Virus record (IMG/VR): IMGVR_UViG_2684622510_000004
Source of the DNA: a virus
Lineage: Duplodnaviria > Heunggongvirae > Uroviricota > Caudoviricetes
Reading direction: 5' to 3' (one strand)
Length of the DNA: 24,154 bases
The position numbers and the translations under genes were made by a program. The notes under the pieces are model-generated. The model made no database searches and was not told the origin of the DNA. It saw nothing but the letters and a program-made list of their open reading frames with translations. The first letter of the stretch is position 1. Every line of letters starts with the position of its first letter. Below, in pieces: positions 1 to 11,521 of this stretch.

Positions 1-1203
1 ATGTCTCTTCGTTTCAGACAAACCTTTACTCTATTTCCTGGCGTTCGACTCAACATTGGCAAGCGTGGAATAAGTGCAAGCATTGGCGTGCCTGGCGCAA
101 CTGTCAATGTTGGTAAAAAAGGGGTTAGAGCAACTGTCGGATTACCGGGCACAGGCTTATCTTATACTACACCTACCTTGCCCTATGATGATGGATACTC
201 AGTTACCAATCCATTAAATCCAGCCCCTACAGAACCTCATTTGGGGTCTGGGTCATCTCCAGAAAATACACCATCGAACGCTAAAATATATATGCCTGTA
301 GCTGGCATGAATGAAATATCCAGCGCTTCGGTAGAAGTCCTTACAAGTACCTCCCTTTTACCTTTACGAGATTTGATTGCTAAAGCACGAGAACAAAGAG
401 CAGAAATAAAAGCAGATCTTCAAGAGGCTCTTGCCGAAGAATCAAAACAAAAAAGCGAGCTAGCTCGACGCAAATCAAGTCTATTCCGTTGGTTTTACAA
501 ACGACGCATCGCAGAACTTGAGACACTACTCCCCCTAACCCAAGCTGAGATATCTCGCCTAGTTTCATGGGAAGACAGCACAAAAATAGCCATAACATTC
601 GAGAGCAGTGATGCTTCACAGCGCGCATATGCAGCGATGGTCCATGCATTTGATATGTTAAAATCGAGTGTCAAAAAATGGGATATTACTGCAGATAAAG
701 CTACAGACCAGTTTGCTGAAAGAACATTAGCAACCCGGTCTGTTAATCGTCACCCAGTTACCTTTGATTTTAGTTCAACGGATCTCATTCAATTTACAGG
801 GCGTGCGATGAGGTTTGAAAATGTGAATGGAGACGATATTTTGCTTTATCCTGGAGTTGCAGTCATACCACGAGCTGATGGAGCATTCGCTCTGATTGAT
901 TTACGCGAATTACAAATTAGTTCAGAATATCTAAGATTCCATGAGGAAGAAGGTGTTCCCAGTGACTCACGCATAGATGGTTATACATGGGCGAAAACGA
1001 ATAAGAATGGCTCACCAGACCGTCGTTTTAAAGATAACTACCAAATCCCTATTTGCATTTATGGAAATATTACTTTCCATTCTCAAACAGGGGTAACTGA
1101 AGAATATATGGTATCAAATGCAGATGCCGCGCACGCCTTTGCTGAGGCAGTAAAACGCTATCAGATTTCACTCACAGAAACAGAAGCGTTGGTACAGGCC
1201 TGA
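1..1203 (+). CDS. DUF4236-domain protein, function unknown
   Basis: 400-aa ORF beginning with ATG at window nt 1. N-terminal ~55 aa (MSLRFRQTFTLFPGVRLNIGKRGISASIGVPGATVNVGKKG...GLPGTGLSYT) matches the glycine-rich DUF4236 signature as I recall it; the rest is unrecognised. Confidence 0.6.
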   Translation: MSLRFRQTFTLFPGVRLNIGKRGISASIGVPGATVNVGKKGVRATVGLPGTGLSYTTPTLPYDDGYSVTNPLNPAPTEPHLGSGSSPENTPSNAKIYMPVAGMNEISSASVEVLTSTSLLPLRDLIAKAREQRAEIKADLQEALAEESKQKSELARRKSSLFRWFYKRRIAELETLLPLTQAEISRLVSWEDSTKIAITFESSDASQRAYAAMVHAFDMLKSSVKKWDITADKATDQFAERTLATRSVNRHPVTFDFSSTDLIQFTGRAMRFENVNGDDILLYPGVAVIPRADGAFALIDLRELQISSEYLRFHEEEGVPSDSRIDGYTWAKTNKNGSPDRRFKDNYQIPICIYGNITFHSQTGVTEEYMVSNADAAHAFAEAVKRYQISLTETEALVQA

Positions 1204-1466
1204 TTTATCGCCGATATGGGGACGAATCGTAGGTAACCCGTTACTTTATTCGTACCCCTTATAATGGGGTGTTAGCCAGCCAGACCCGGCATGATTACTG
1301 CCCCCAGTCGTCCATGATCCGGGGGGTGATGTCACCGGGTCTGGTGGGGCGCTGGTAACCGCTAATAGGGGTCAGGTCAGGCACTTTTGCCGGGACCGTC
1401 TGTAACGTGGATGCCGGTACCTGCTCCCCGTGGTTATCTGGTTAACCCATATACAAGGGAGACAGA
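1204..1466 (+). ncRNA. candidate IS110-family bridge (guide) RNA in the 5' noncoding end of the IS
   Basis: 263-nt GC-rich noncoding stretch upstream of the recombinase with short hairpins (e.g. ccccttataatgggg). In the IS110 subgroup the bridge RNA is encoded at this position (established knowledge, not demonstrated here). Confidence 0.3.
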
Positions 1467-2680
1467 ATGACCGAATCCAGCGATTACGAATCCGTCCAGG
1501 TCTTTATCGGCGTTGATGTCGGTAAAGATACGCATCACGCTGTAGCCATTAATCGTTCAGGTAAACGCCTGTTCGATAAAGCATTACCCAACGACGAAAA
1601 CAAACTCAGGTCGCTAATATCTGACCTGAAACAACATGGTCAGATACTGCTGGTTGTTGATCAGCCAGCTACCATCGGTGCGTTACCTGTCGCCGTTGCC
1701 CGCTCAGAAGGAGTCCTTGTCGGATACCTCCCTGGACTGGCCATGCGCCGCATAGCCGACTTACACGCCGGTGAAGCTAAAACTGATGCTCGTGACGCTG
1801 CCATCATTGCCGAAGCTGCCCGTACCCTGCCTCACGCGCTACGCACGCTGAAACTGGCTGACGAGCAAATCGCCGAACTCTCCATGCTCTGCGGCTTCGA
1901 TGATGATCTTGCCGCACAGACAACGCAGGCCAGCAACCGTATCCGCGGCCTTCTGACCCAGATACATCCGGCACTGGAGCGCGTTCTCGGTCCGAGACTT
2001 GATCACCCGGCGGTACTCGATCTTCTCCAGCGATATCCCTCACCAGAAAAACTCGCTTCGCTGGGTGAGAAGAAGCTGGCAGCCCAGCTCTGCAAACTTG
2101 CGCCTCGTCTGGGTAAACGCCTTGCAGCAGACATAGCTCAGGCACTGGCCGAACAAACCGTCGTCGTTCCCGGCACGAATGCCGCTGCCGTAGTACTGCC
2201 ACGTCTGGCACTCCAGCTCATCACGCTGCGTAAGCAAAGAGACGAGGTGGCGCTTGCGGTAGAACAGCGAGTTCTTGCTCACCCTCTTTACCCGGTCCTG
2301 ACCAGTATGCCCGGAGTCGGTGTCAGGACCGCAGCCAGACTCCTCACCGAGGTCGCCTGCCGCGCCTTCGCCTCTGCCGCGCCTTCGCCTCTGCCGCACA
2401 TCTCGCTGCTTATGCTGGCCTTGCGCCGGTAACTCGGCGATCCGGCTCGTCAATACGCGGTGAGCATCCCTCGCGACGGGGTAATAAAGCTCTCAAACGG
2501 GCGTTGTTCCTGTCGGCCTTCGCCGCGCTCAGGGATCCGCTCTCCAGGGCTTACTACACCCGCAAAATGAGTCAGGGAAAACGACACAATCAGGCGCTTA
2601 TCGCCCTGGCGAGACGACGCTGCGACGTTCTGTTCGCCATGATGCGCGACGGGACTTTTTATACCCCGCAGGCGTCATAA
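1467..2680 (+). pseudogene. IS110-family DEDD transposase/recombinase, frameshifted
   Basis: N-terminal MTESSDYESVQVFIGVDVGKDTHHAVAI... is a typical IS110 DEDD start. The ORF terminates prematurely at 2432. Removing one copy of the 17-bp duplication at 2361-2394 restores the conserved C-terminus ...AFASAAHLAAYAGLAPVTRRSGSS... running to the stop at 2678-2680. Confidence 0.7.
2361..2394. repeat. perfect 17-bp tandem duplication (cgcgccttcgcctctgc x2) inside the transposase gene
   Basis: Read directly: 2361-2377 is identical to 2378-2394. Length is not a multiple of 3, so it frameshifts the gene. Confidence 0.9.
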
Positions 2681-2717
2681 CATGCTTGACAACTTAATAG
2701 GGGCACCCCCCTAGAAC

Positions 2718-2757
2718 AAAAAAAACCTTAAGAACCAGACTATTATGGCTGGTTCTT
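2718..2757 (-). terminator. terminator-like hairpin (stem aagaaccag/ctggttctt) followed by a T8 run on the minus strand
   Basis: Stem 2730-2738 pairs with 2749-2757; A8 run at 2718-2725 on the plus strand gives a U-run after the hairpin on the minus strand. Could be the IS right end or a relic terminator. Confidence 0.35.
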
Positions 2758-2883
2758 GTACGGAGGATTTGTTATTGTACAACTCTTCTATCTGGTATAT
2801 TTACGGATAGAACTGTTCAGGCTACTCAATCCTTTTTAAGTACAAATGAACAGATAGAAATAGTTATATTGCAAGGAGCTATC

Positions 2884-3672
2884 ATGCACACTGAGTATAT
2901 ATGGCGATACCTTGACATAGAGAAATTCTCTATGTTACTCGAACAAAATGCTTTATTTTTTTGCTCAGCAAAAAATTTTGAAGATCCGTTCGAAGGTGAA
3001 TTTGCTTGGGGACATACTGGCTATAAAAAATTCATTGAGACACAGGAAAAACTATGCGCTACTTATGGTGCCGGCATGGACTTAGATCCTTTCATTGCAT
3101 TCAATTTAAAGACACTTAAGGAAATAAGCGAGAGGACATATATAAGTTGCTGGCATTGTAACGAACATGAATCTGAAGCTATGTGGAAGCTGTATTGTAA
3201 AAACCCCGCTAAAGGCGTTGTCATAAAATCAAAGAAAAAAAACCTCCAAAGCCAACTTGAAAATAATAATCTAAACAAACTACAATTAAAACACGTAAAA
3301 TACGTCAAAAATTTCTGGATAAAACAATACAATCCAGAATCAGATGTATTCTTTAACAAGAGACCATCTTTCGAATACGAAAAAGAGTTTAGAGCTATTT
3401 TTCAAGAGAATACCTTTAACACTCCACCTGTAAAGGGAAAACTAGTCCCTGTATCTCTTAATAATCTGTTGGAAGAAATAAGGATTTCACCTTTCGCAGA
3501 TAAGGATTTCAAAAATGAAGTTTTACAAATTTCAAAAAAACATGGACTAGATCTGAAAGTCAAAAACTCTGAAATTGAAATGCATCCCATCATGCATGTT
3601 GAGGAAGAAATAATTGCAGAAGGCCCCAATTGGTATCAGTCAAAAATCAGATTGGCAATACGTGATGCTTAA
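2884..3672 (+). CDS. DUF2971-like hypothetical protein (AT-rich accessory gene)
   Basis: AAGGAG at 2873-2878 with a 5-nt spacer to ATG 2884. N-terminal motif ...LFFCSAKNFEDPFEGEF resembles the DUF2971 'FxDPFE' signature. Visibly AT-rich compared with flanking genes, convergent with tfa. Confidence 0.55.
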   Translation: MHTEYIWRYLDIEKFSMLLEQNALFFCSAKNFEDPFEGEFAWGHTGYKKFIETQEKLCATYGAGMDLDPFIAFNLKTLKEISERTYISCWHCNEHESEAMWKLYCKNPAKGVVIKSKKKNLQSQLENNNLNKLQLKHVKYVKNFWIKQYNPESDVFFNKRPSFEYEKEFRAIFQENTFNTPPVKGKLVPVSLNNLLEEIRISPFADKDFKNEVLQISKKHGLDLKVKNSEIEMHPIMHVEEEIIAEGPNWYQSKIRLAIRDA

Positions 3673-3775: not shown

Positions 3776-4360
3776 TTACTCCATAACAGGGACAGCAGGC
3801 CACTCAATATCAGGTGCAGTTGATGTATCAACACGGTTCAGCAACACCCGATACTTTTTCCAGGCTTCCAGCAACGAGGTTTCTCCCTCCGTTGCGATTT
3901 CCAGATCTGCAGCATCCTGAAGTGGCGCAATATGCTCACTGGCTACCTGCATCAGGCTATTTTTTGTTTCTTCCGCCTCCCGGATCCGGAACAGTTTTTC
4001 TGCTTCTGCATCTTTCACCCAGGTTGTGCCGTTCCACTTCTGAAACTCCCCTTCCGGGGATAACCAGGTGACATTTTCCGGTAATGAGCCGAGTTCAGAA
4101 ATAAATAACGCGTCGCCGGAAGCCACGTCATAGACGGTTTTACCCCGATGGTCTTCAACGAGATGCCACGATGCCTCATCACTGTTGAAAACAGCCACAA
4201 AGCCAGCCGGAATATCTGGCGGTTCAATATCGGTACTGTTTGCTGGCAGACCTGTATGAGGCGGAATATATGCGTCACCTTCACCAATAAATTCATTAGT
4301 TCCGGCCAGCAGATTATAAATTTTTATGGTCCGTGGTTGTTCACTCATTCTGAATGCCAT
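3776..4360 (-). CDS. tfa: tail fiber assembly protein (Tfa family)
   Basis: 194-aa product [34 protein letters not shown]... typical of lambdoid Tfa chaperones. ATG overlaps the stf stop (TAATG) at 4358-4362. Confidence 0.85.
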
Positions 4361-7125
4361 TATGCAAGCCTCACAATGTAGTTAAATGCGATGTTTTTGA
4401 CGGTGTTTTCCGCGTTACCAGCAGCGTTAACGGTGATGGTGTGTCCATGTGAGCCAATCGCAACAGAGTGCGTATGAGCACCAATACCGACAGTATGTGC
4501 GTGAGCACCTGCAGATGCAGCTGTGCCGCTGACACTATGAGTGTGCGCTCCTGCAGCACTTGTATTCACACTGGCCGCAGACACTACCTTATGTACTGAC
4601 CCATTTTGTGACCACTGGCTGACTGCTGATGCGCCTGTGACACTATGAGTATGGTTTCCGGCACTTGCGGCTGTACCGCTCACACTGTGCGTATGCGCCC
4701 CGGTGTTATTCGTGGATTTAGTGCCGTAATCAAACGACGATGTGGTTTTCGTCCCCAAATCCGTACTGGATGCGCTGGCGCTGTGGGTGTGCGATTTAAT
4801 GCCGTCCTGTTCCTGAGACAATACGGCCCGACCACTGGCAGGTTTGCCCTTAATCGTCCAGCCACGCATATCAGGGATCACGCCTGACGGATAAGCGGTT
4901 GCAAGTTTCGGGTAAGCAGATTTGTCAAAAGTCTGCCCCTGCATCAGGGCATAACCAGACGGAACGGTATCTGATGGCCACGGGATTGGTGCGCCAGGCG
5001 GATAAAACTGCTCTGATGGCGTATAGAGTGAATAAACTGTACCGTCCGTTAACCCTTCCGGCTTATTAGCAGAATATGCTGGTGACGTATGAATAGTCAC
5101 GCTGGCATTACTGGTATAATCCCATTGAATATTTACACCAGTCGCATAATTTCCGATTGCAACGTAAATATCGTAAGTATCACCAGATGTATTGACCCAG
5201 GCAAAATTTGTAAACCCTGTCGATGTGCGCTGCCATAAAGCACCAGTAATCCCCTTCGGATTACCATTACCTGCACGCAAAACAAGTTCAGATATACCTG
5301 CCTGTTGAGGTGACCCCACGTTAAATCCCGCGCCACCAATCAACGTAATTGAAACAACAGAACTCGCCTGTGGCATGGTTACCGTTGCTAATTTGAACCA
5401 ACCAGCACCACCGCTGAATGACATTGTTGTTGAGTTAAGCGTACCAATATCTTTCGGCGTCAGTGTTATATCCGCTGAAAGCGCCTTACCATTCACCTTA
5501 CGGGCAGAAGGTACCCGACCATTCGCATTATCATTAGCTGCTTTCACTGCTTTCGGTGTCGCGGCAAGCGTTTCAGATGCGCTGTTGGTTGCACTACTGA
5601 GCTGGACAATTCCTTTTTGTGCTGTCGTAGCGTCCTGAGCGGTATATTTCCCGTTAGCAAGGTCATAGGCTGCCTTTACCGACTTTGGCGTTGCCGCCAG
5701 CATTTCAGATGTGCTGTTGGTCGCGCTGCTGAGCTGAACTATCCCTTTCTGTGCTGTCGTTGCATCCTGTGCGGTGTATTTCCCGTTAGCCAGGTCATAC
5801 GCGGCCTTAACGGCTTTTGGCGTTGCCGCCAGTGACTCGGAAGTGCTGTTAGTCGCACTGCTGAGCTGTACTATCCCCTTTTTCGTCGTGCTCGCATCCT
5901 CAAGCGCCACGGCGGATGCAATATCCTCTGCCCGTTTTGCCGCTGTCTCAGCGCGCGTTGCTGCGGATTCTGCCGTACTTTTGCTCTGTGCTGCCGCTGC
6001 CGCACTGCCAGCAGCCTCTGTCGCCTTCGTGGATGCCGTCGTGGCGCTGCCCCTCGCTGCTGACGCCTGTCTGGTCGCCTCATCTTTTGAAGCAGACGCC
6101 GATGAGGCCGATGACGCCGCCGAACTGGCGGACGATGCGGCAGCCGTTTTTGAGGATTCTGCGCTGGTTTCCGACGCTTTCGCGTTCGTTTCGGATGTCT
6201 TCGCTGCGGAAGCTGACCTCGCTGCTGCGCTGGCCTGTTCAGTGGCTTCGCCAGCCTTCGTTGTGGCTGTTGAAGCGGATGATGCGGCGCTTTCTGCCGA
6301 TTTTCCGGCGGCGATGGCACTGGCTGAGGCCTGTCCGGCACTTGTTGACGCGGCACTGGCAGACGACGCAGCCGCTGTTTTTGAGCCTGCCGCAGCTGAG
6401 GCGCTCTGTCCCGCTGCCGTCTCAGAAGACCTGGCGTTTGTCTCAGACGTCCTTGCCGCCTTCGCGGAATTTCCTGCCGCCGTTGCCGAGGAAGCTGCAC
6501 TACTGGCGCTTGATGATGCGTTCGTTTCTGATGATTTTGCCGCCTCTTTTGAAGCCGACGCATCCCAGGCTGAGGTGGCAGCTTCTGACGCTTTCGTGGT
6601 CGCGGTGGATGCAGAAGTGGCGGCTGATTGTTCTGACGCTGCCGCATTCGTTTCTGACGTTTTCGCCGCACCGGCACTGGTAGCCGCCGCGCTTTTTGAG
6701 GACTCTGCAGCGGCAGCACTTTTTGAGGCTTCAGTGGCCTTTGTTGATGCCGTTCCTGCGCTGGAAGACGCTGACTGAGCCGACGACGCGGCCTGTCCGG
6801 CTGACGTGCTGGCTGCACGTGCTGAATCTGCAGCATCAGTCGCACGGGTTGCCGCCTCACTGGCAGATGTGCTGGCATCACTGGCTGACTTCTTTGCGGC
6901 TGCCGTGTTCTGTGCCACCACGGACGCGTTACGCGCCACCTCTTCCACCATCAGTTCAAAACGACGCAGTGCCTCCGGACGGGCATCATCCTCCGTCATG
7001 GCACCGAGAAAATCATTCAGCGTACCGGGTTGAGAATCTTCATACACGGTGATGGTCCCGGCATGTGACGGCGGGAATCCCTCCACCAACAGAATAACGC
7101 TGTACTGACCGTACTCAACGTCCAT
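4360..7125 (-). CDS. stf: side tail fiber protein (Stf-like), N-terminally truncated remnant
   Basis: 921-aa Ala/Ser-rich product with three 44-aa tail-fibre repeats ([37 protein letters not shown]) and a His-rich [10 protein letters not shown]-terminus. The first in-frame Met (MDVEYGQYS) corresponds to an internal position of full-length Stf, and an in-frame stop lies 5 codons upstream. Confidence 0.8.
5500..5895. repeat. three tandem ~132-bp repeats inside stf
   Basis: Period 132 bp read directly (e.g. gctgttgg at 5581-5588 and 5713-5720; gtgctgtt at 5711-5718 and 5843-5850). These encode the repeated 44-aa tail-fibre units. Confidence 0.75.
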
Positions 7126-7625
7126 GCTGTAACGCCCGGCTTCTCAATAGCTGCCAGCAGCGGGCTAATCCACAGAATGGCCTGACAATACGTTATTGAG
7201 CGGGTGGTAACGGCGCTATCACTGGCTGCGTCAACGTTCCTGGAATCGGTGTGCATTGCGCTGGCACGTAAACGGTTCGCGTAGTTGAGCAGCCCACCAG
7301 CGACATCAGCAGGAACAGGCATATCACAGGTTTTTTCACGACGGAGAATCTCTCGGTATTCGATAACAGTTTTCTCGGTGCCGGTATCAATCAGCGAGTT
7401 AAGACGGTTGGTGTTCTCTGCTACCAGGTTAAACCGGTTGAAGTTGAAGGCTTGGGTAGCTATGACGGTCGCCTGTAGCGCGTTGTCGCTGCGCAGTACC
7501 CGGATGTCACTTTCAGATATGGTCAGTGCTGCATTGCTGCGTGCCAGCAGAACACAGAGCACCGCGATGATAATTACGACAACCACCAGCAGAACCGCAA
7601 TAATCGCAATTTTGTTGGGTTTCAT
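7017..7625 (-). CDS. Rz-like i-spanin; 3' end reads into stf-derived sequence in another frame
   Basis: N-terminal TM anchor ([27 protein letters not shown]) followed by a coiled-coil periplasmic region. Start overlaps the endolysin stop (TGATG). After about codon 160 the ORF is translating the stf junction region. Confidence 0.5.
7193..7339 (-). CDS. Rz1-like o-spanin lipoprotein embedded in the +1 frame of Rz
   Basis: GTG start gives [17 protein letters not shown] (lipobox LVGC) followed by a Pro-rich mature peptide ending ...APLPPAQ, entirely inside Rz. The start codon choice is my inference. Confidence 0.5.
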   Translation of the reverse strand: MKKPVICLFLLMSLVGCSTTRTVYVPAQCTPIPGTLTQPVIAPLPPAQ

Positions 7626-8191
7626 CAGAACACTCCCGGCGTTGTTGCAGGCGTTCCAGGGTTAAGTGGCCCAAATCCATCGTTGAGATTTTGCGGATTC
7701 TCACCCCACAGGCAAACTTCGCGCTCAATCTCGCGGCGGGTGATCAGTCCTTTCCACTGCTTACCGCCAGCGTATGTCCAGCGACGTAGCTGGTCACATG
7801 CGCCTTTGATATCACCCTGGTTTATTTTGCGAAGAAGCGTCGATGTTCTGAAATTGCCAGCACCCACGTTGTAAACGAACGAGTAAAGAGCGCCGCGCGT
7901 TGTTTCCGGTATATCGACTTTGATGTACGGGTTAATTTGTCTGGCGACAGTGGCAAGGTCTTTATTCAGGAGGGCTTTGCATTCTGCTTCGGTATACGTT
8001 TTACCGAGCATAATGTCTTTTCCGGTGTGCCCGTAACATACAGTCCATACGCCAACGATATCTTTATATGGTATGTAGCTGACACCTTCCAGACCATCGT
8101 CACCACTCGGACCAGTGATGAGCACAGACGCTATGGCAACAGCCCCACCACCAATAGCAGCTGCAACAGCCTTGCGTAATGATGGCGACAT
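7625..8191 (-). CDS. SAR endolysin (T4-lysozyme type, GH24; phage 21 R-like)
   Basis: N-terminal signal-anchor-release segment ([18 protein letters not shown]) and the E-x8-D-x5-T catalytic triad ([17 protein letters not shown]). Start overlaps the holin stop (TAATG). Confidence 0.85.
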
Positions 8192-8406
8192 TATTCACCT
8201 CTCGCAGCCTTACGCTTATCTTCTTTAATCTTGAAATAAAGGTTTGTCAGGTACGTCAGCAGGCCAAATACCAGACTACCCAGCACACCTATTGCCGCCC
8301 ACTGTGATGGCGTGACTTTATCGAGCAACTGTAAAAACCAGTAGCCAGCACTGCCTGCAGAGGTGCCATAGGCGACACCTGTTGTTAACTTATCCATTGA
8401 TTTCAT
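8191..8406 (-). CDS. class II pinholin (phage 21 S21-like, dual-start MKSM motif)
   Basis: 71-aa product [71 protein letters not shown] closely resembles S21 as I remember it. RBS GAGGTGG lies upstream of ATG 8406. Confidence 0.8.
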
Positions 8407-8473
8407 AACCCCACCTCGCAGATGCGGGTGCTGTGTAATGGAAATAAAAAGGCCACCTGACGTGGCCACCAGA

Positions 8474-9526
8474 TTATTTCCCCACCAGCTCGTTTATCTC
8501 TTTCACCGTCTGGTTAAACCGCTCTGACTCAAGCTCAACACCTAAGGCCCGACGCCCCAGCGCCATTGCTGCTTTTATTGTGGAACCGGATCCCATAAAA
8601 AAATCAGCAACCAGATCACCAGGTCGACTACTGGCATTGATTATTTGCCGGAGCATATTCGCAGGTTTCTCACACGGATGTTTACCCGGGTAGAACTGAA
8701 CGGGTTTATGCATCCAGACATCGGTATAAGGCACGGAGACTGATACGGAGAAATAGCGCCGGAGAGATTTAAACTCATCCAGCAATTCAGAATATTTGCG
8801 ATTCAGTGAATTATAAGATGCCACCAGTTGGTGGTGTGGTTGTTCCAGTTGTTGTTCCTGAAACTTCTCTGCCGCTATACGGGAAAACAGTGCCTGTAAC
8901 TTCCGGTAGTCAGCCTCATTCGGCAACTGCCACTGACTGGCACCAAACCAGTGGGAAACCATATTTTTCTTACCTGTGGCTTCGGCAATCTGTTTTGCCG
9001 TTATACCCAGTTCGGCACGAGCATCCCTGAAATACGATATCAGCGGTGCCATTATGTGCTGTTTGAGTTCCCTTTCTTTTGCCGCATAGCCGTCACTTTT
9101 GCCGCGATATGGCCCCTGGTAATGTTCAGCAAACAGAACGCGCTCTGTGGCAGGAAAATATGCGCGCAAACTTTCTTTATTACACCCATTCCAACGTCCG
9201 GACGGCTTCGCCCAGATGATATGGTTAAGCACATTGAAACGTTCACGCATCATGATCTCGATATCAGATGCCAGGCGATGTCCACAGAACAGGTAAAGGC
9301 TTCCGGCAGGTTTCAACACCCGCCAGAACTGGGCCAGACAGTGGTCCAGCCACTTAAGGTAATCTTCGTCCCCTTTCCACTGATTGTCCCAGCCGTTGGG
9401 CTTCACTTTGAAGTACGGTGGATCGGTAACAATCAGATCAATGGAGTCATCAGGCAGGGACTGAATAAAATGCAGGCAATCAGCGTTGATTAAATCAACA
9501 CTGTTTATTTTTACAGTATTTTTCAT
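8474..9526 (-). CDS. DNA N6-adenine methyltransferase (orphan, phage-type)
   Basis: 350 aa with a DPPY catalytic motif near the N-terminus (VTDPPYF) and an AdoMet-binding FxGxG motif near the C-terminus (DFFMGSGST). Confidence 0.85.
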
Positions 9527-9660
9527 GGATCAGTAAGCGTAACTCTGGTAGGCTCACTCTGCTTTTGCGCTAAAGCAGTGGGCCATGGTTCGCTTGTGAC
9601 CAGTAAGCATGAGCGAATGGCTGGCAAGTGCTACCAACACCCACCAGCCGCCCATTTTCA

Positions 9661-9688
9661 CAAATTAAAAGCCCTTCATTGCTGAAGG
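9661..9688 (-). terminator. rho-independent terminator-like hairpin (ccttc-agcaat-gaagg followed by GCTTTTAATTT on the minus strand)
   Basis: Read directly; the stop codon of the small ORF lies within the stem. Confidence 0.4.
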
Positions 9689-9870
9689 CGTCTGTAACAG
9701 CCGAACTGGTAATCTGCCAGCCCCGCCATAACCAGCTGGGTCAGTATTAACTGACAGCGTTCGCGTGAAAGGTATGTGTTTTGTGCAATCTCCCCGACTG
9801 TTGCCGGTTCGATGCTTAATTCATTAAAAACAACTTTCGCCGTTTCTGTCATATCTTGCTGTTTTAGCAT
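9676..9870 (-). CDS. small hypothetical protein, possible winged-helix fold
   Basis: 64-72 aa ORF (start at 9870 or 9894, weak RBS either way); product ...ATVGEIAQNTYLSRERCQLILTQLVMAGLADY. Lies between two minus-strand terminators; coding status uncertain. Confidence 0.35.
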   Translation of the reverse strand: MLKQQDMTETAKVVFNELSIEPATVGEIAQNTYLSRERCQLILTQLVMAGLADYQFGCYRRLQQ

Positions 9871-9990
9871 GTCTTTTTCCCTTCTGGTTAACATGACATA
9901 CCAATAACTCTTGTCTAAAAAGCCAGCAAGATAAAAAGTCAGTATTCACGACCACCAGCGTGTTTACCGTACTGCTCTTGGTTTACAGGT

Positions 9991-10017
9991 ACAAAAAACC
10001 CGCTCGACGGCGGGTTT
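9991..10017 (-). terminator. rho-independent terminator (8-bp stem aaacccgc/gcgggttt followed by T-run on the minus strand)
   Basis: Stem 9996-10003 pairs with 10010-10017, loop tcgacg; A-run on the plus strand upstream gives a U-tail on the minus strand. Possibly the late-operon tR'-type terminator. Confidence 0.5.
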
Positions 10018-10062
10018 AAGCTGTGTGGCGAAGTAACCACTCTTAACACGATACAATTTTTT

Positions 10063-10091
10063 TTGCGTACGCGTTAGTTTTTTATTATTTT
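10063..10091 (+). promoter_or_regulatory. candidate sigma70 promoter for the moron operon (-35 TTGCGT, 17-bp spacer, -10 TATTTT)
   Basis: Hexamers read directly in the AT-rich region about 45 nt upstream of ATG 10136; not validated. Confidence 0.3.
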
Positions 10092-10135
10092 ACTTTTTGA
10101 TACTATCGGCGTGGTTACAAACAAGGAGAACAGCA

Positions 10136-10399
10136 ATGAGTAACTACTTGGAAGTTAAGAGAAAAATTGGTCAATATGCATGTGTTACTCGGTGGGGTTT
10201 CCCCTGTGCCGAGCGTGAAATCACTTTGATACAAAATGACATTAACTCCGCGATTCAAAGTGGTAAAGTTATAAGTCGTAGCATGCTCCAAGGCATTATC
10301 AGCCGTCATGTTCCCAATACCCATTTCTTAATCACCGACAGTGTCGACAACTCTGATCTTAACACTGCATTAAGAATGCTGGCGCCAAAACAAAAATGA
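10136..10399 (+). CDS. hypothetical 87-aa protein (moron gene 1)
   Basis: AAGGAGAA RBS 5 nt upstream of ATG 10136. Stop overlaps the next start (ATGA at 10396-10399). AT-rich; no family recognised. Confidence 0.5.
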   Translation: MSNYLEVKRKIGQYACVTRWGFPCAEREITLIQNDINSAIQSGKVISRSMLQGIISRHVPNTHFLITDSVDNSDLNTALRMLAPKQK

Positions 10400-11136
10400 A
10401 TAATGATGTGTTTCAGATCAGCCCCGACGAAGTAACGTCGGAGCTGATTTCTGCAAAGGAAAGATTTTTACGTGGTATTCAGCCATACTTGTGTAATGGT
10501 ATATCAAACCTTGCTGACCTACATGAAATTCAGCAGCACGCTTCAAAATATTTTAATACCGCTGTTAAATTAGTTCAAAAAGTAGATTTATGTAAACTGG
10601 ATGACAATAAGACATTTGCCATTTCCTTAGTTGGAGACTGTCGAGCGGTTCTGGAAACTTATTTAGAATACTACGACATGATGGTGTCAAACATTAAATG
10701 CCTAGAAATTGATCCAAACAATATTGTACTGTATAGCAAAGATGGTCTATCAAACCTCCAAAGAATCATTAAAAAGTATTCATCAAAAGATATTTACACA
10801 CCTATTATTGCTGAATTTGAGTCTCGAAATTTGCCAATCGATGGATTTACTATAGGTACACCAATGAATTGGAAATTAATTGTCACTGCCATTATTGGAT
10901 TTTTAAGTTTTTGTATTTTTTTATCAATTACGCTGCTAATACCAGATTTGAATGAATTTCAAAAGAAAATGATTTTCTCTTTATATTTCATGAGTGCGGC
11001 CGTTGGAATCTCGCCATTCATTGCAAATAATATAAAGGTCAATGGGAAGATGGCATTTCGTGGTTCGGAATTCAAAGTATCTGCTGTTGGTGGTTTAGCA
11101 GCATTGATTGTTTCTTTCATCATCCAAGTAATTTAG
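10396..11136 (+). CDS. hypothetical membrane protein, ~160-aa soluble N-domain plus three predicted C-terminal TM helices (moron gene 2)
   Basis: Translationally coupled to gene 1. Hydrophobic stretches WKLIVTAIIGFLSFCIFLSITLLI, MIFSLYFMSAAVGISPFIA and VSAVGGLAALIVSFIIQVI. AT-rich; followed by a hairpin terminator. Confidence 0.55.
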   Translation: MNNDVFQISPDEVTSELISAKERFLRGIQPYLCNGISNLADLHEIQQHASKYFNTAVKLVQKVDLCKLDDNKTFAISLVGDCRAVLETYLEYYDMMVSNIKCLEIDPNNIVLYSKDGLSNLQRIIKKYSSKDIYTPIIAEFESRNLPIDGFTIGTPMNWKLIVTAIIGFLSFCIFLSITLLIPDLNEFQKKMIFSLYFMSAAVGISPFIANNIKVNGKMAFRGSEFKVSAVGGLAALIVSFIIQVI

Positions 11137-11137
11137 C

Positions 11138-11159
11138 AAAGAGGCCCTAAGGCCTCTTA
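11138..11159. terminator. hairpin (aagaggcc-ctaa-ggcctctt) between the convergent moron operon and Q
   Basis: Perfect 8-bp inverted repeat read directly between the stop at 11136 and the Q stop at 11163; could act bidirectionally. Confidence 0.4.
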
Positions 11160-11162
11160 TAA

Positions 11163-11504
11163 TCATAGCATTGATAGCACACCACTAACAAAACCTAATG
11201 CTGTTTGCATATCTTTTCTAATTGTCCCATCAGAACACTTACGCTTCTTCGCAATGGTGCGTAATGAAATACCAATAACAAAGTGGGCAATAATTAACTC
11301 ATATTCTTCTTGTTTATATTTACGTAACCGTGCGACACAACCGTCTATCATGATCCCTTCATCATCATCACACTGGAGACGTGTTTTTTTACCATGAGGT
11401 AAAAGCCCCTTGAAGCCTGCTGCTATCGGCTGCCAATCCACACTACTGTTATCTGCTGCAGCCCATGCTCCCCAGCGGTCCAAAACTTCATACATGTCAC
11501 GCAT
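11163..11504 (-). CDS. late-gene antiterminator Q (QuuD/Phage_antitermQ-like)
   Basis: Product MRDMYEVLDRWGAWAAADNSSVDWQPIAAGFKGLL...QCDDD...C resembles the small Q proteins of DLP12/P22 type as I recall them. GGAG RBS upstream of ATG 11504. Position upstream of the lysis genes fits. Confidence 0.6.
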   Translation of the reverse strand: MRDMYEVLDRWGAWAAADNSSVDWQPIAAGFKGLLPHGKKTRLQCDDDEGIMIDGCVARLRKYKQEEYELIIAHFVIGISLRTIAKKRKCSDGTIRKDMQTALGFVSGVLSML

Positions 11505-11521
11505 CAACTTTCTCCACAAAA

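Follow-up and report, generated by a model that had tools for sequence, protein, structure and literature searches.

A 24,154-nucleotide (nt) stretch of DNA from a Caudoviricetes virus (IMG/VR record IMGVR_UViG_2684622510_000004), hereafter called the window, represents a lambda-like (lambdoid) prophage of Escherichia coli. Within it, a compact two-gene cassette lies between the gene for antiterminator Q and the late-gene leader. A preliminary description, made from the sequence alone, had proposed that this cassette is an undescribed exclusion or abortive-infection module. Our analysis supports the cassette as a prophage accessory element and candidate defence system, built from two unannotated protein families and representing one of many cargoes of phage hotspots. 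Several E. coli chromosomes match the 1.3 kb around the cassette with 100% identity, and both genes are annotated there as "hypothetical protein." The cassette and its boundaries are as follows, in window coordinates.

10086 to 11168, plus strand: whole variable cassette (~1.08 kb), comprising promoter region, gene 1, gene 2 and hairpin; delimited by breaks in homology to phage mEp460_4F5
10094 to 10106, plus strand: predicted cassette promoter, a T-tract and then an extended -10 element (TTTTTGATACTAT)
10123 to 10129, plus strand: Shine-Dalgarno sequence AAGGAGA of gene 1, read from the sequence, 6 nt 5' of the ATG at 10136
10136 to 10399, plus strand: gene 1, 87 amino acids from the ATG; basic (isoelectric point (pI) 9.4), soluble and helical, with the invariant C-terminal motif SVDNSDLNTALR
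10396 to 11136, plus strand: gene 2, a predicted inner-membrane protein of 246 amino acids, with an acidic cytoplasmic helical domain (residues ~1-155) and three transmembrane (TM) helices
11139 to 11158, no strand assigned: GC-rich, 8-bp hairpin AGAGGCC-CTAA-GGCCTCT between the convergent stop codons of gene 2 and Q
11163 to 11519, minus strand: antiterminator Q of the Q21 family (PF06530, E 3e-45), a fixed neighbour outside the cassette, convergent to gene 2
9994 to 10079, minus strand (read from 10079 to 9994): late-leader element and intrinsic terminator, the other fixed boundary of the slot

As initially described, the two plus-strand genes are translationally coupled through a stop-start overlap (ATGA, 10396-10399) that is seen in the sequence. 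They run opposite to the late operon and are convergent to Q, between Q and the methylase and lysis genes, and these neighbours were all identified on the minus strand. The region had also been called more AT-rich than its surroundings, and its G+C content is indeed 0.31-0.41 over positions 10000-11200, versus 0.45-0.57 in the flanks. An alternative, TTG-extended form of gene 1 that starts at 10097 would encode 100 amino acids. The neighbouring Q protein also distantly matches Q21 structures 6P18 and 6JNX (E 3e-4).

The extent of the cassette is defined by comparison with phage mEp460_4F5, whose Q belongs to the same family and is 90% identical. Homology stops at 10085/10086 on one side and at 11168/11169 on the other. 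In the same slot, mEp460_4F5 has a different cargo (L009 2737-3663, plus strand): a very AT-rich, convergent open reading frame (ORF) for an N/K-rich protein of 308 amino acids with no assigned function, which may be another exclusion candidate. A prophage of E. coli Combat2C1 represents the empty site. Here the flanks abut, with Q followed within ~20 nt by the conserved leader block and then by the intrinsic terminator. In prophage DLP12, the same block and terminator reside upstream of essD, and the nmpC porin gene, convergent to quuD, is located with IS5 between them and quuD. Variable presence at the locus, which had been raised as a point to check, is thus documented by both an empty site and alternative cargo. 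Among 5426 complete E. coli genomes, 21 (~0.4%) carry the pair. The cassette is non-essential and variably present at one locus among close relatives, as is the case for morons.

On the basis of these alignments, the slot lies between Q and the conserved late leader and terminator; that is, it is the slot used by nmpC in DLP12 and by lc in phage PA-2. The preliminary description had placed the cassette at the lambdoid hotspot occupied by stx genes, and this was imprecise. Like stx and ArtAB-type morons, the cassette falls in the general Q-to-lysis interval of lambdoid phages. However, those genes are downstream of the late promoter and terminator (pR'/tR'), co-oriented with the late genes and served by Q read-through. 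Alignment with the empty-site prophage and DLP12 places the cassette upstream of the leader terminator and antisense to it, with a predicted promoter of its own, and assignment to the stx slot was rejected. The stx position 3' of the late terminator of the Combat2C1 prophage carries, in late orientation, genes for a scabin-related ADP-ribosyltransferase and a subtilase-family B subunit, which form an ArtAB-like toxin (L023 1069-2355, minus strand). The nmpC and lc genes share with the cassette both the interval from a Q21-family Q to the late leader and terminator and the orientation convergent to Q, but each encodes a single outer-membrane porin, whereas the cassette encodes a soluble protein and an inner-membrane protein. 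Expression of the lc and nmpC porins changes the availability of receptors for superinfecting phage.

The late-leader boundary consists of the block CTAACGCGTACGCAAAAA-N11-TGTTAAGAGTGGTTACTTCGCCACACAGCTTAA with a hairpin and a T-run. This arrangement is conserved in the window, in mEp460_4F5, in the empty-site prophage, in DLP12, and in Citrobacter and Klebsiella, and the block is common to ~3000 E. coli genomes. The element at 9994-10079 has a fold z-score of -2.7 and a sub-threshold, isrK-like Rfam match of 17 bits; nothing in the cassette region reaches a gathering score in the Rfam scan. The block probably holds the Q-dependent late promoter pR', the Q-binding element and tR' for the Q21-family Q. 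No clear sigma-70 hexamers were located within it.

A promoter-like site (TTGTTA-18-(TG)TATGAT; 11162-11191, minus strand) overlaps the Q stop codon and, if active, would direct antisense transcripts through the cassette. A late promoter at this site, reading from 11191 to 11162 and onward, was considered and rated unlikely, because Q of mEp460_4F5 is immediately followed by a strong terminator and because the leader element travels with the late genes. This site could nonetheless be taken to indicate that the cassette serves the phage's own late-gene control or lysis timing, as an anti-Q factor, a holin modulator or a source of antisense interference. Such a role would also account for the fixed position of the pair: each of the 11 lambdoid viral contigs, like the Klebsiella and Citrobacter prophages, has it convergent to this Q family and adjoining the late leader. 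However, prophages with the same Q and leader and no cassette indicate that it is dispensable, and homologous pairs occur without Q in P2-like phages, chromosomes and plasmids. We consider a late-control role highly improbable.

The existence of a candidate promoter had also been proposed. A simple -35/-10 scan called no canonical -35/-10 promoter for the cassette, but an extended -10 element (TGATACTAT, 10098-10106) is preceded by a T-tract. The E. coli, Citrobacter and Klebsiella versions all keep the pattern TTTTTTG(A/T)TA(C/A/T)(T/A)(A/G)T, with unchanged spacing to the CGCGTTAG block, although the surrounding sequence has diverged. This element is probably the cassette's own promoter.

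At the other end of the cassette, a hairpin terminator shared with Q had been suggested. The hairpin is present, with a predicted folding energy of -14.6 kcal/mol (z = -3.1), and GC-rich hairpins are found at the equivalent position in the Klebsiella and Citrobacter versions. However, its U-tract is weak, with no proper T-run, and the terminator scan did not call it. The structure is likely a bidirectional terminator or a transcript-stabilizing element.

The proposed protein architecture, with a small soluble product of gene 1 and a cytoplasmic domain plus three TM helices in gene 2, agrees with hydropathy and with AlphaFold2 models. The model of the gene 1 protein is mainly helical (mean confidence score, pLDDT, of 80). 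For gene 2 (pLDDT 71), a helical domain spans residues 10-143 (pLDDT 85-90) and is followed by hydrophobic helices at 159-181, 187-209 and 230-245. The loop at 182-188 has a net charge of -2 and that at 210-229 contains four positive charges and one negative. Together with hydropathy, these loop charges fit three TM helices with the N terminus inside and the C terminus outside. The N-terminal domain of gene 2 has a pI of 5.0, versus 9.4 for gene 1, and this charge complementarity lends weak support to a partnership between the two proteins.

The first reading had recognized neither protein as a member of a known family, and this held in broader searches. Neither family matched Pfam, NCBIfam or PADLOC when the two window proteins and 41 and 12 family members were searched, and no homology to housekeeping proteins or to families with an established function emerged. 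Searches of PADLOC-DB v2.0.0 with both window proteins and 41 family members yielded no credible match; the top one was to DndH (E 0.003 over 59 amino acids). No solved structure in the PDB matches either protein, and fold searches were uninformative. Each protein matches a single PHROG, to which no function is assigned. In gene 1, we detected neither a DNA-binding fold typical of antitoxins, nor a recognizable regulator fold, nor similarity to a toxin-antitoxin (TA) family. The literature searched contained no mention of the RefSeq accessions or of the DNSDLN motif, and the papers on phage hotspots did not describe the gene pair.

Both proteins nevertheless belong to sizeable families. A full HMMER scan of 1.8 billion representatives (E <= 1e-3) recovered 79 clusters of gene 2 relatives, mostly of 245-270 amino acids and with the same layout. 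Conserved features are the YFN, C82, QR122-123 and LPxxGF motifs and the TM region. Rare relatives (P0090, P0070, P0056 and P0072) keep the N-terminal domain and add or swap C-terminal domains, which include a PGAP1/DUF676 alpha/beta-hydrolase, a DUF3298/RsiV-like domain and domains of ~170 amino acids without assignment. Such C-terminal modularity is typical of effector swapping. The gene 1 family comprises at least 307 clusters of proteins of 80-90 amino acids, all unannotated, with the C-terminal motif [GS][VLI]DNSDLNT[LA]L; in loci with the pair, the motif reads SVDNSDLNT. We know of no counterpart to this family of small partners or to its ancestral duplication, described next.

Whether the two genes co-occur had been posed as a further check, and they are strongly linked across phyla. 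Of 45 loci, 44 retain an intact pair: the membrane gene has, directly 5' of it, one or two members of the gene 1 family that end in the SVDNSDLNT motif. In every locus retrieved through gene 1, a gene 2 homologue is immediately 3'; conversely, loci retrieved through gene 2 have one or more gene 1-family ORFs immediately 5' in all cases but one. The lone exception is a copy on a Pseudomonas aeruginosa plasmid (L049), where IS30 is inserted in place of the small-gene region. The loci range over Enterobacteriaceae, Burkholderiaceae, Methylococcales and an Ignavibacteriales metagenome-assembled genome. Spacing in intact loci consists of overlaps of 1-13 nt or gaps of at most ~10 nt, with a sole outlier of up to ~245 nt (L028). 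Loci other than those of enteric prophages typically have the membrane gene after two paralogous small genes, an arrangement that we regard as ancestral.

Comparison of the window allele with one 94%-identical E. coli allele gave ratios of nonsynonymous to synonymous substitution rates (dN/dS) of 0.24 for gene 2, 0.45 for gene 1 and 0.07 for Q, which shows that the gene pair is under purifying selection. Conservation across phyla, the lack of frameshifts and dN/dS values below 1 led us to reject the possibility of chance ORFs. Between genera, Q is 85-90% identical, versus ~57% for gene 2 and 45-54% for gene 1 (cassette proteins, 45-57%), so the cassette proteins evolve fast relative to Q. Occurrence counts in IMG/VR and in species representatives derive from a scan for the gene 1 motif and are therefore lower bounds: at least 14 of 2.9 million IMG/VR contigs and at least 9 of 185,579 species representatives. 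The gene pair is rare and patchy in its distribution.

In lambdoid prophages of E. coli, Citrobacter and Klebsiella, the pair always resides in the slot between Q and the late leader. A distant homologous pair (45% and 27% identity) is carried by P2-like phages, phage DC1 among them, between the tail-fibre gene G and the sheath gene FI. In P2 itself, this locus (the Z/fun hotspot) is occupied by fun(Z), annotated as "blocks growth of T5." Other distant homologues adjoin defence genes: Zorya zorC and zorD (L031 773-6897), the gene for GajB on a KfrA-bearing contig (L016 1901-4308), and Hachiman hamA next door to the plasmid copy with IS30 in P. aeruginosa (L049 5845-8008). In two further loci, a type III methyltransferase lies 6 kb from the homologue (L026) and a CHAT-domain protein is its neighbour (L033). 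The pooled set of neighbours includes PD-Lambda-1 and PtuB matches, the former not tied to a locus, along with many housekeeping and metabolic genes. One homologue adjoins a VapB antitoxin gene, and in Haemophilus (guaB-guaA), Aeromonas (after sucD) and Marinomonas the pair forms isolated two-gene islets amid housekeeping genes.

These islets, like the KfrA-bearing, plasmid-like context and the copy next to VapB, would be expected of an addiction module in which a membrane toxin is neutralized by a co-translated small protein and which stabilizes a prophage, plasmid or islet, since cells that lose it would die, without necessarily defending against phage. The order of the genes, with a small upstream gene overlapping a larger downstream one by 4 nt, resembles that of type II TA operons, which are likewise mobile and found as isolated islets, and the pair has been kept in a prophage that looks defective (see below). 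However, the small protein has no antitoxin-like DNA-binding fold, the putative toxin would be a 27-kDa polytopic membrane protein, and the two paralogous small genes that are often present, including in the ancestral versions, are unusual for TA pairs. We regard a pure addiction module as quite unlikely, although TA and abortive-infection functions can coexist, so that the explanation overlaps with the one that we favour.

The additional C-terminal domains of gene 2 relatives are presumably periplasmic, and the DUF3298/RsiV-like example hints at sensing outside the cytoplasm. The pair might then be a lysogenic-conversion factor unrelated to phage, that is, a membrane complex that alters host envelope physiology (stress tolerance, colonization, transport or signalling), with the small protein as a signal that the cytosolic domain sequesters or releases, much like an anti-sigma factor. 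The porin gene that DLP12 and PA-2-type phages carry in the same slot, and the many ordinary metabolic genes among the neighbours, fit this proposal. Against it, no regulator fold was recognized in gene 1, and the patchy, rare distribution, fast divergence, and hotspot and defence-island sites suit conflict systems better. We judge lysogenic conversion of this kind unlikely.

These same features lead us to favour a role in conflict. A mobile conflict cassette fits an element that is AT-rich, probably self-promoted, variable, fast-evolving and strictly co-inherited, and that recurs both in defence islands and at two independent hotspots of phage exclusion. We give an even chance to the hypothesis that the cassette is a superinfection-exclusion or abortive-infection module, expressed in the lysogen and protecting it from other phages, in which the small partner controls a membrane effector. 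According to this hypothesis, the extended -10 promoter of the cassette would drive its transcription in the lysogen, apart from the early and late phage operons. The product would be a translationally coupled pair, of which the smaller protein is basic and cytosolic and the other, in the inner membrane, joins an acidic cytosolic helical domain to a conserved 3-TM module. The gene 1 protein might dock on the cytosolic domain of gene 2 through the invariant C-terminal SVDNSDLNT helix cap and thereby hold or tune the membrane protein. An infection cue would alter this interaction, and the TM module would then either perturb the inner membrane, with depolarization leading to abortive infection, or block genome entry.

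More tentatively, and with somewhat less than even confidence, we propose that the pair, ancestrally a trio, represents an undescribed and widely scattered anti-phage family. One or two small SVDNSDLNT proteins would sit on a dedicated cytosolic receiver domain as infection sensors or as locks, and this domain would gate interchangeable effectors, mostly the 3-TM pore module and in some members an alpha/beta-hydrolase. Members of the family would shuttle between the lambdoid slot, the P2 Z/fun locus, plasmids and defence islands.

The early proposal of an exclusion or abortive-infection candidate thus gains circumstantial support from the pair in the P2 Z/fun hotspot and from adjacency to Zorya, Gabija and Hachiman genes, but several observations weigh against it. 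PADLOC v2 finds nothing for either family, and fold searches are uninformative for both proteins. The Haemophilus and Aeromonas islets have no defence neighbours, so a selfish TA element fits them equally well. Many of the pooled neighbours are housekeeping genes, and the ~10 loci are too few for a statistical test of enrichment. Finally, among lysogens of P2-like phages challenged with an 8-phage panel, only AC1 was reported as protective and DC1 was not highlighted (Rousset et al. 2022; PMC9122126), which we take as a weak negative.

Comparison with established systems places the cassette near several of them without matching any. RexA and RexB of phage lambda constitute a two-component abortive-infection system in which RexA has 279 amino acids. 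The resemblance lies in a prophage-encoded pair of one soluble and one polytopic inner-membrane protein, with expression in the lysogen and control of the membrane effector by the soluble partner, both of which are proposed for the cassette. Unlike RexAB, the cassette has a soluble partner of only 87 amino acids and a large cytosolic domain on the membrane protein, and it is located not in the immunity region but in the Q-late leader slot; moreover, Pfam and PADLOC gave no match of the RexAB kind, and no homology to RexAB was found. With fun(Z) and old/tin of P2, the latter being exclusion genes of lysogenic conversion, the cassette shares the character of AT-rich, non-essential cargo transcribed against neighbouring structural genes, and its distant relatives share the G-FI locus of fun(Z). 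However, fun(Z) is a single large protein, and no homology between it and the cassette was detected. The combination of a membrane protein and a soluble partner, the patchy distribution, and residence in prophages or defence islands also recall Kiwa KwaAB, gp30/gp31 of mycobacteriophage Butters, and the 2TM-4TM effectors of retron, CBASS and Pycsar systems, but the cassette lacks homology to any PADLOC model.

Nothing in the cassette contradicts current understanding so far, and as a candidate it is well supported and open to direct testing. If it excludes phage, the defence arsenal of E. coli, Klebsiella and Citrobacter would include an unannotated two- or three-component system whose sensor or lock motif and receiver domain are both new. 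The slot between Q and the late leader in Q21-family lambdoid prophages would then be a defence hotspot comparable to those of P2 and P4, and the Q-to-leader interval would offer a simple genomic handle for mining more systems. The share of complete E. coli genomes that carry the pair gives it some relevance to phage therapy and typing, here within a prophage remnant. If the cassette is only an addiction module or envelope factor, it represents one more hypothetical moron.

The late genes of the window are on the other side of the cassette from Q, as listed below.

8474 to 9526, minus strand: DNA methylase
8191 to 8469, minus strand: P21-type holin
7625 to 8191, minus strand: lysozyme

The stx-type slot of the window, from the leader terminator to the holin (8474-9894, minus strand), contains an ORF for a winged-helix-like protein of 72 amino acids (PHROG 331) and the methylase, of the N6/N4 type; this arrangement is common to phages Ayreon and mEp460. 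Within 3776-8469, the holin, the lysozyme and a 202-amino-acid Rz-like ORF run directly into a tail-fibre gene (4360-7125) and a tail-fibre assembly gene (3776-4360), and no terminase, head or tail-tube genes were found in this interval. Because the lysis genes run into tail-fibre genes and the terminase, head and tail-tube genes are missing, the prophage looks like a defective remnant. Inside the tail-fibre assembly gene (3819-4017, minus strand) is a strong Rfam match to IS009 (RF02111, 225 bits). The end of the prophage at 1-3672 encodes a DUF4236 protein (1-1203), an IS110-family transposase (1467-2432) and a DUF2971 protein (2869-3672), and it may be a second accessory or defence-like patch. 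A tyrosine integrase gene (21533-22696, plus strand) abuts a tRNA gene (22714-22786, minus strand), and this junction (21533-22786) is likely the prophage attachment site.

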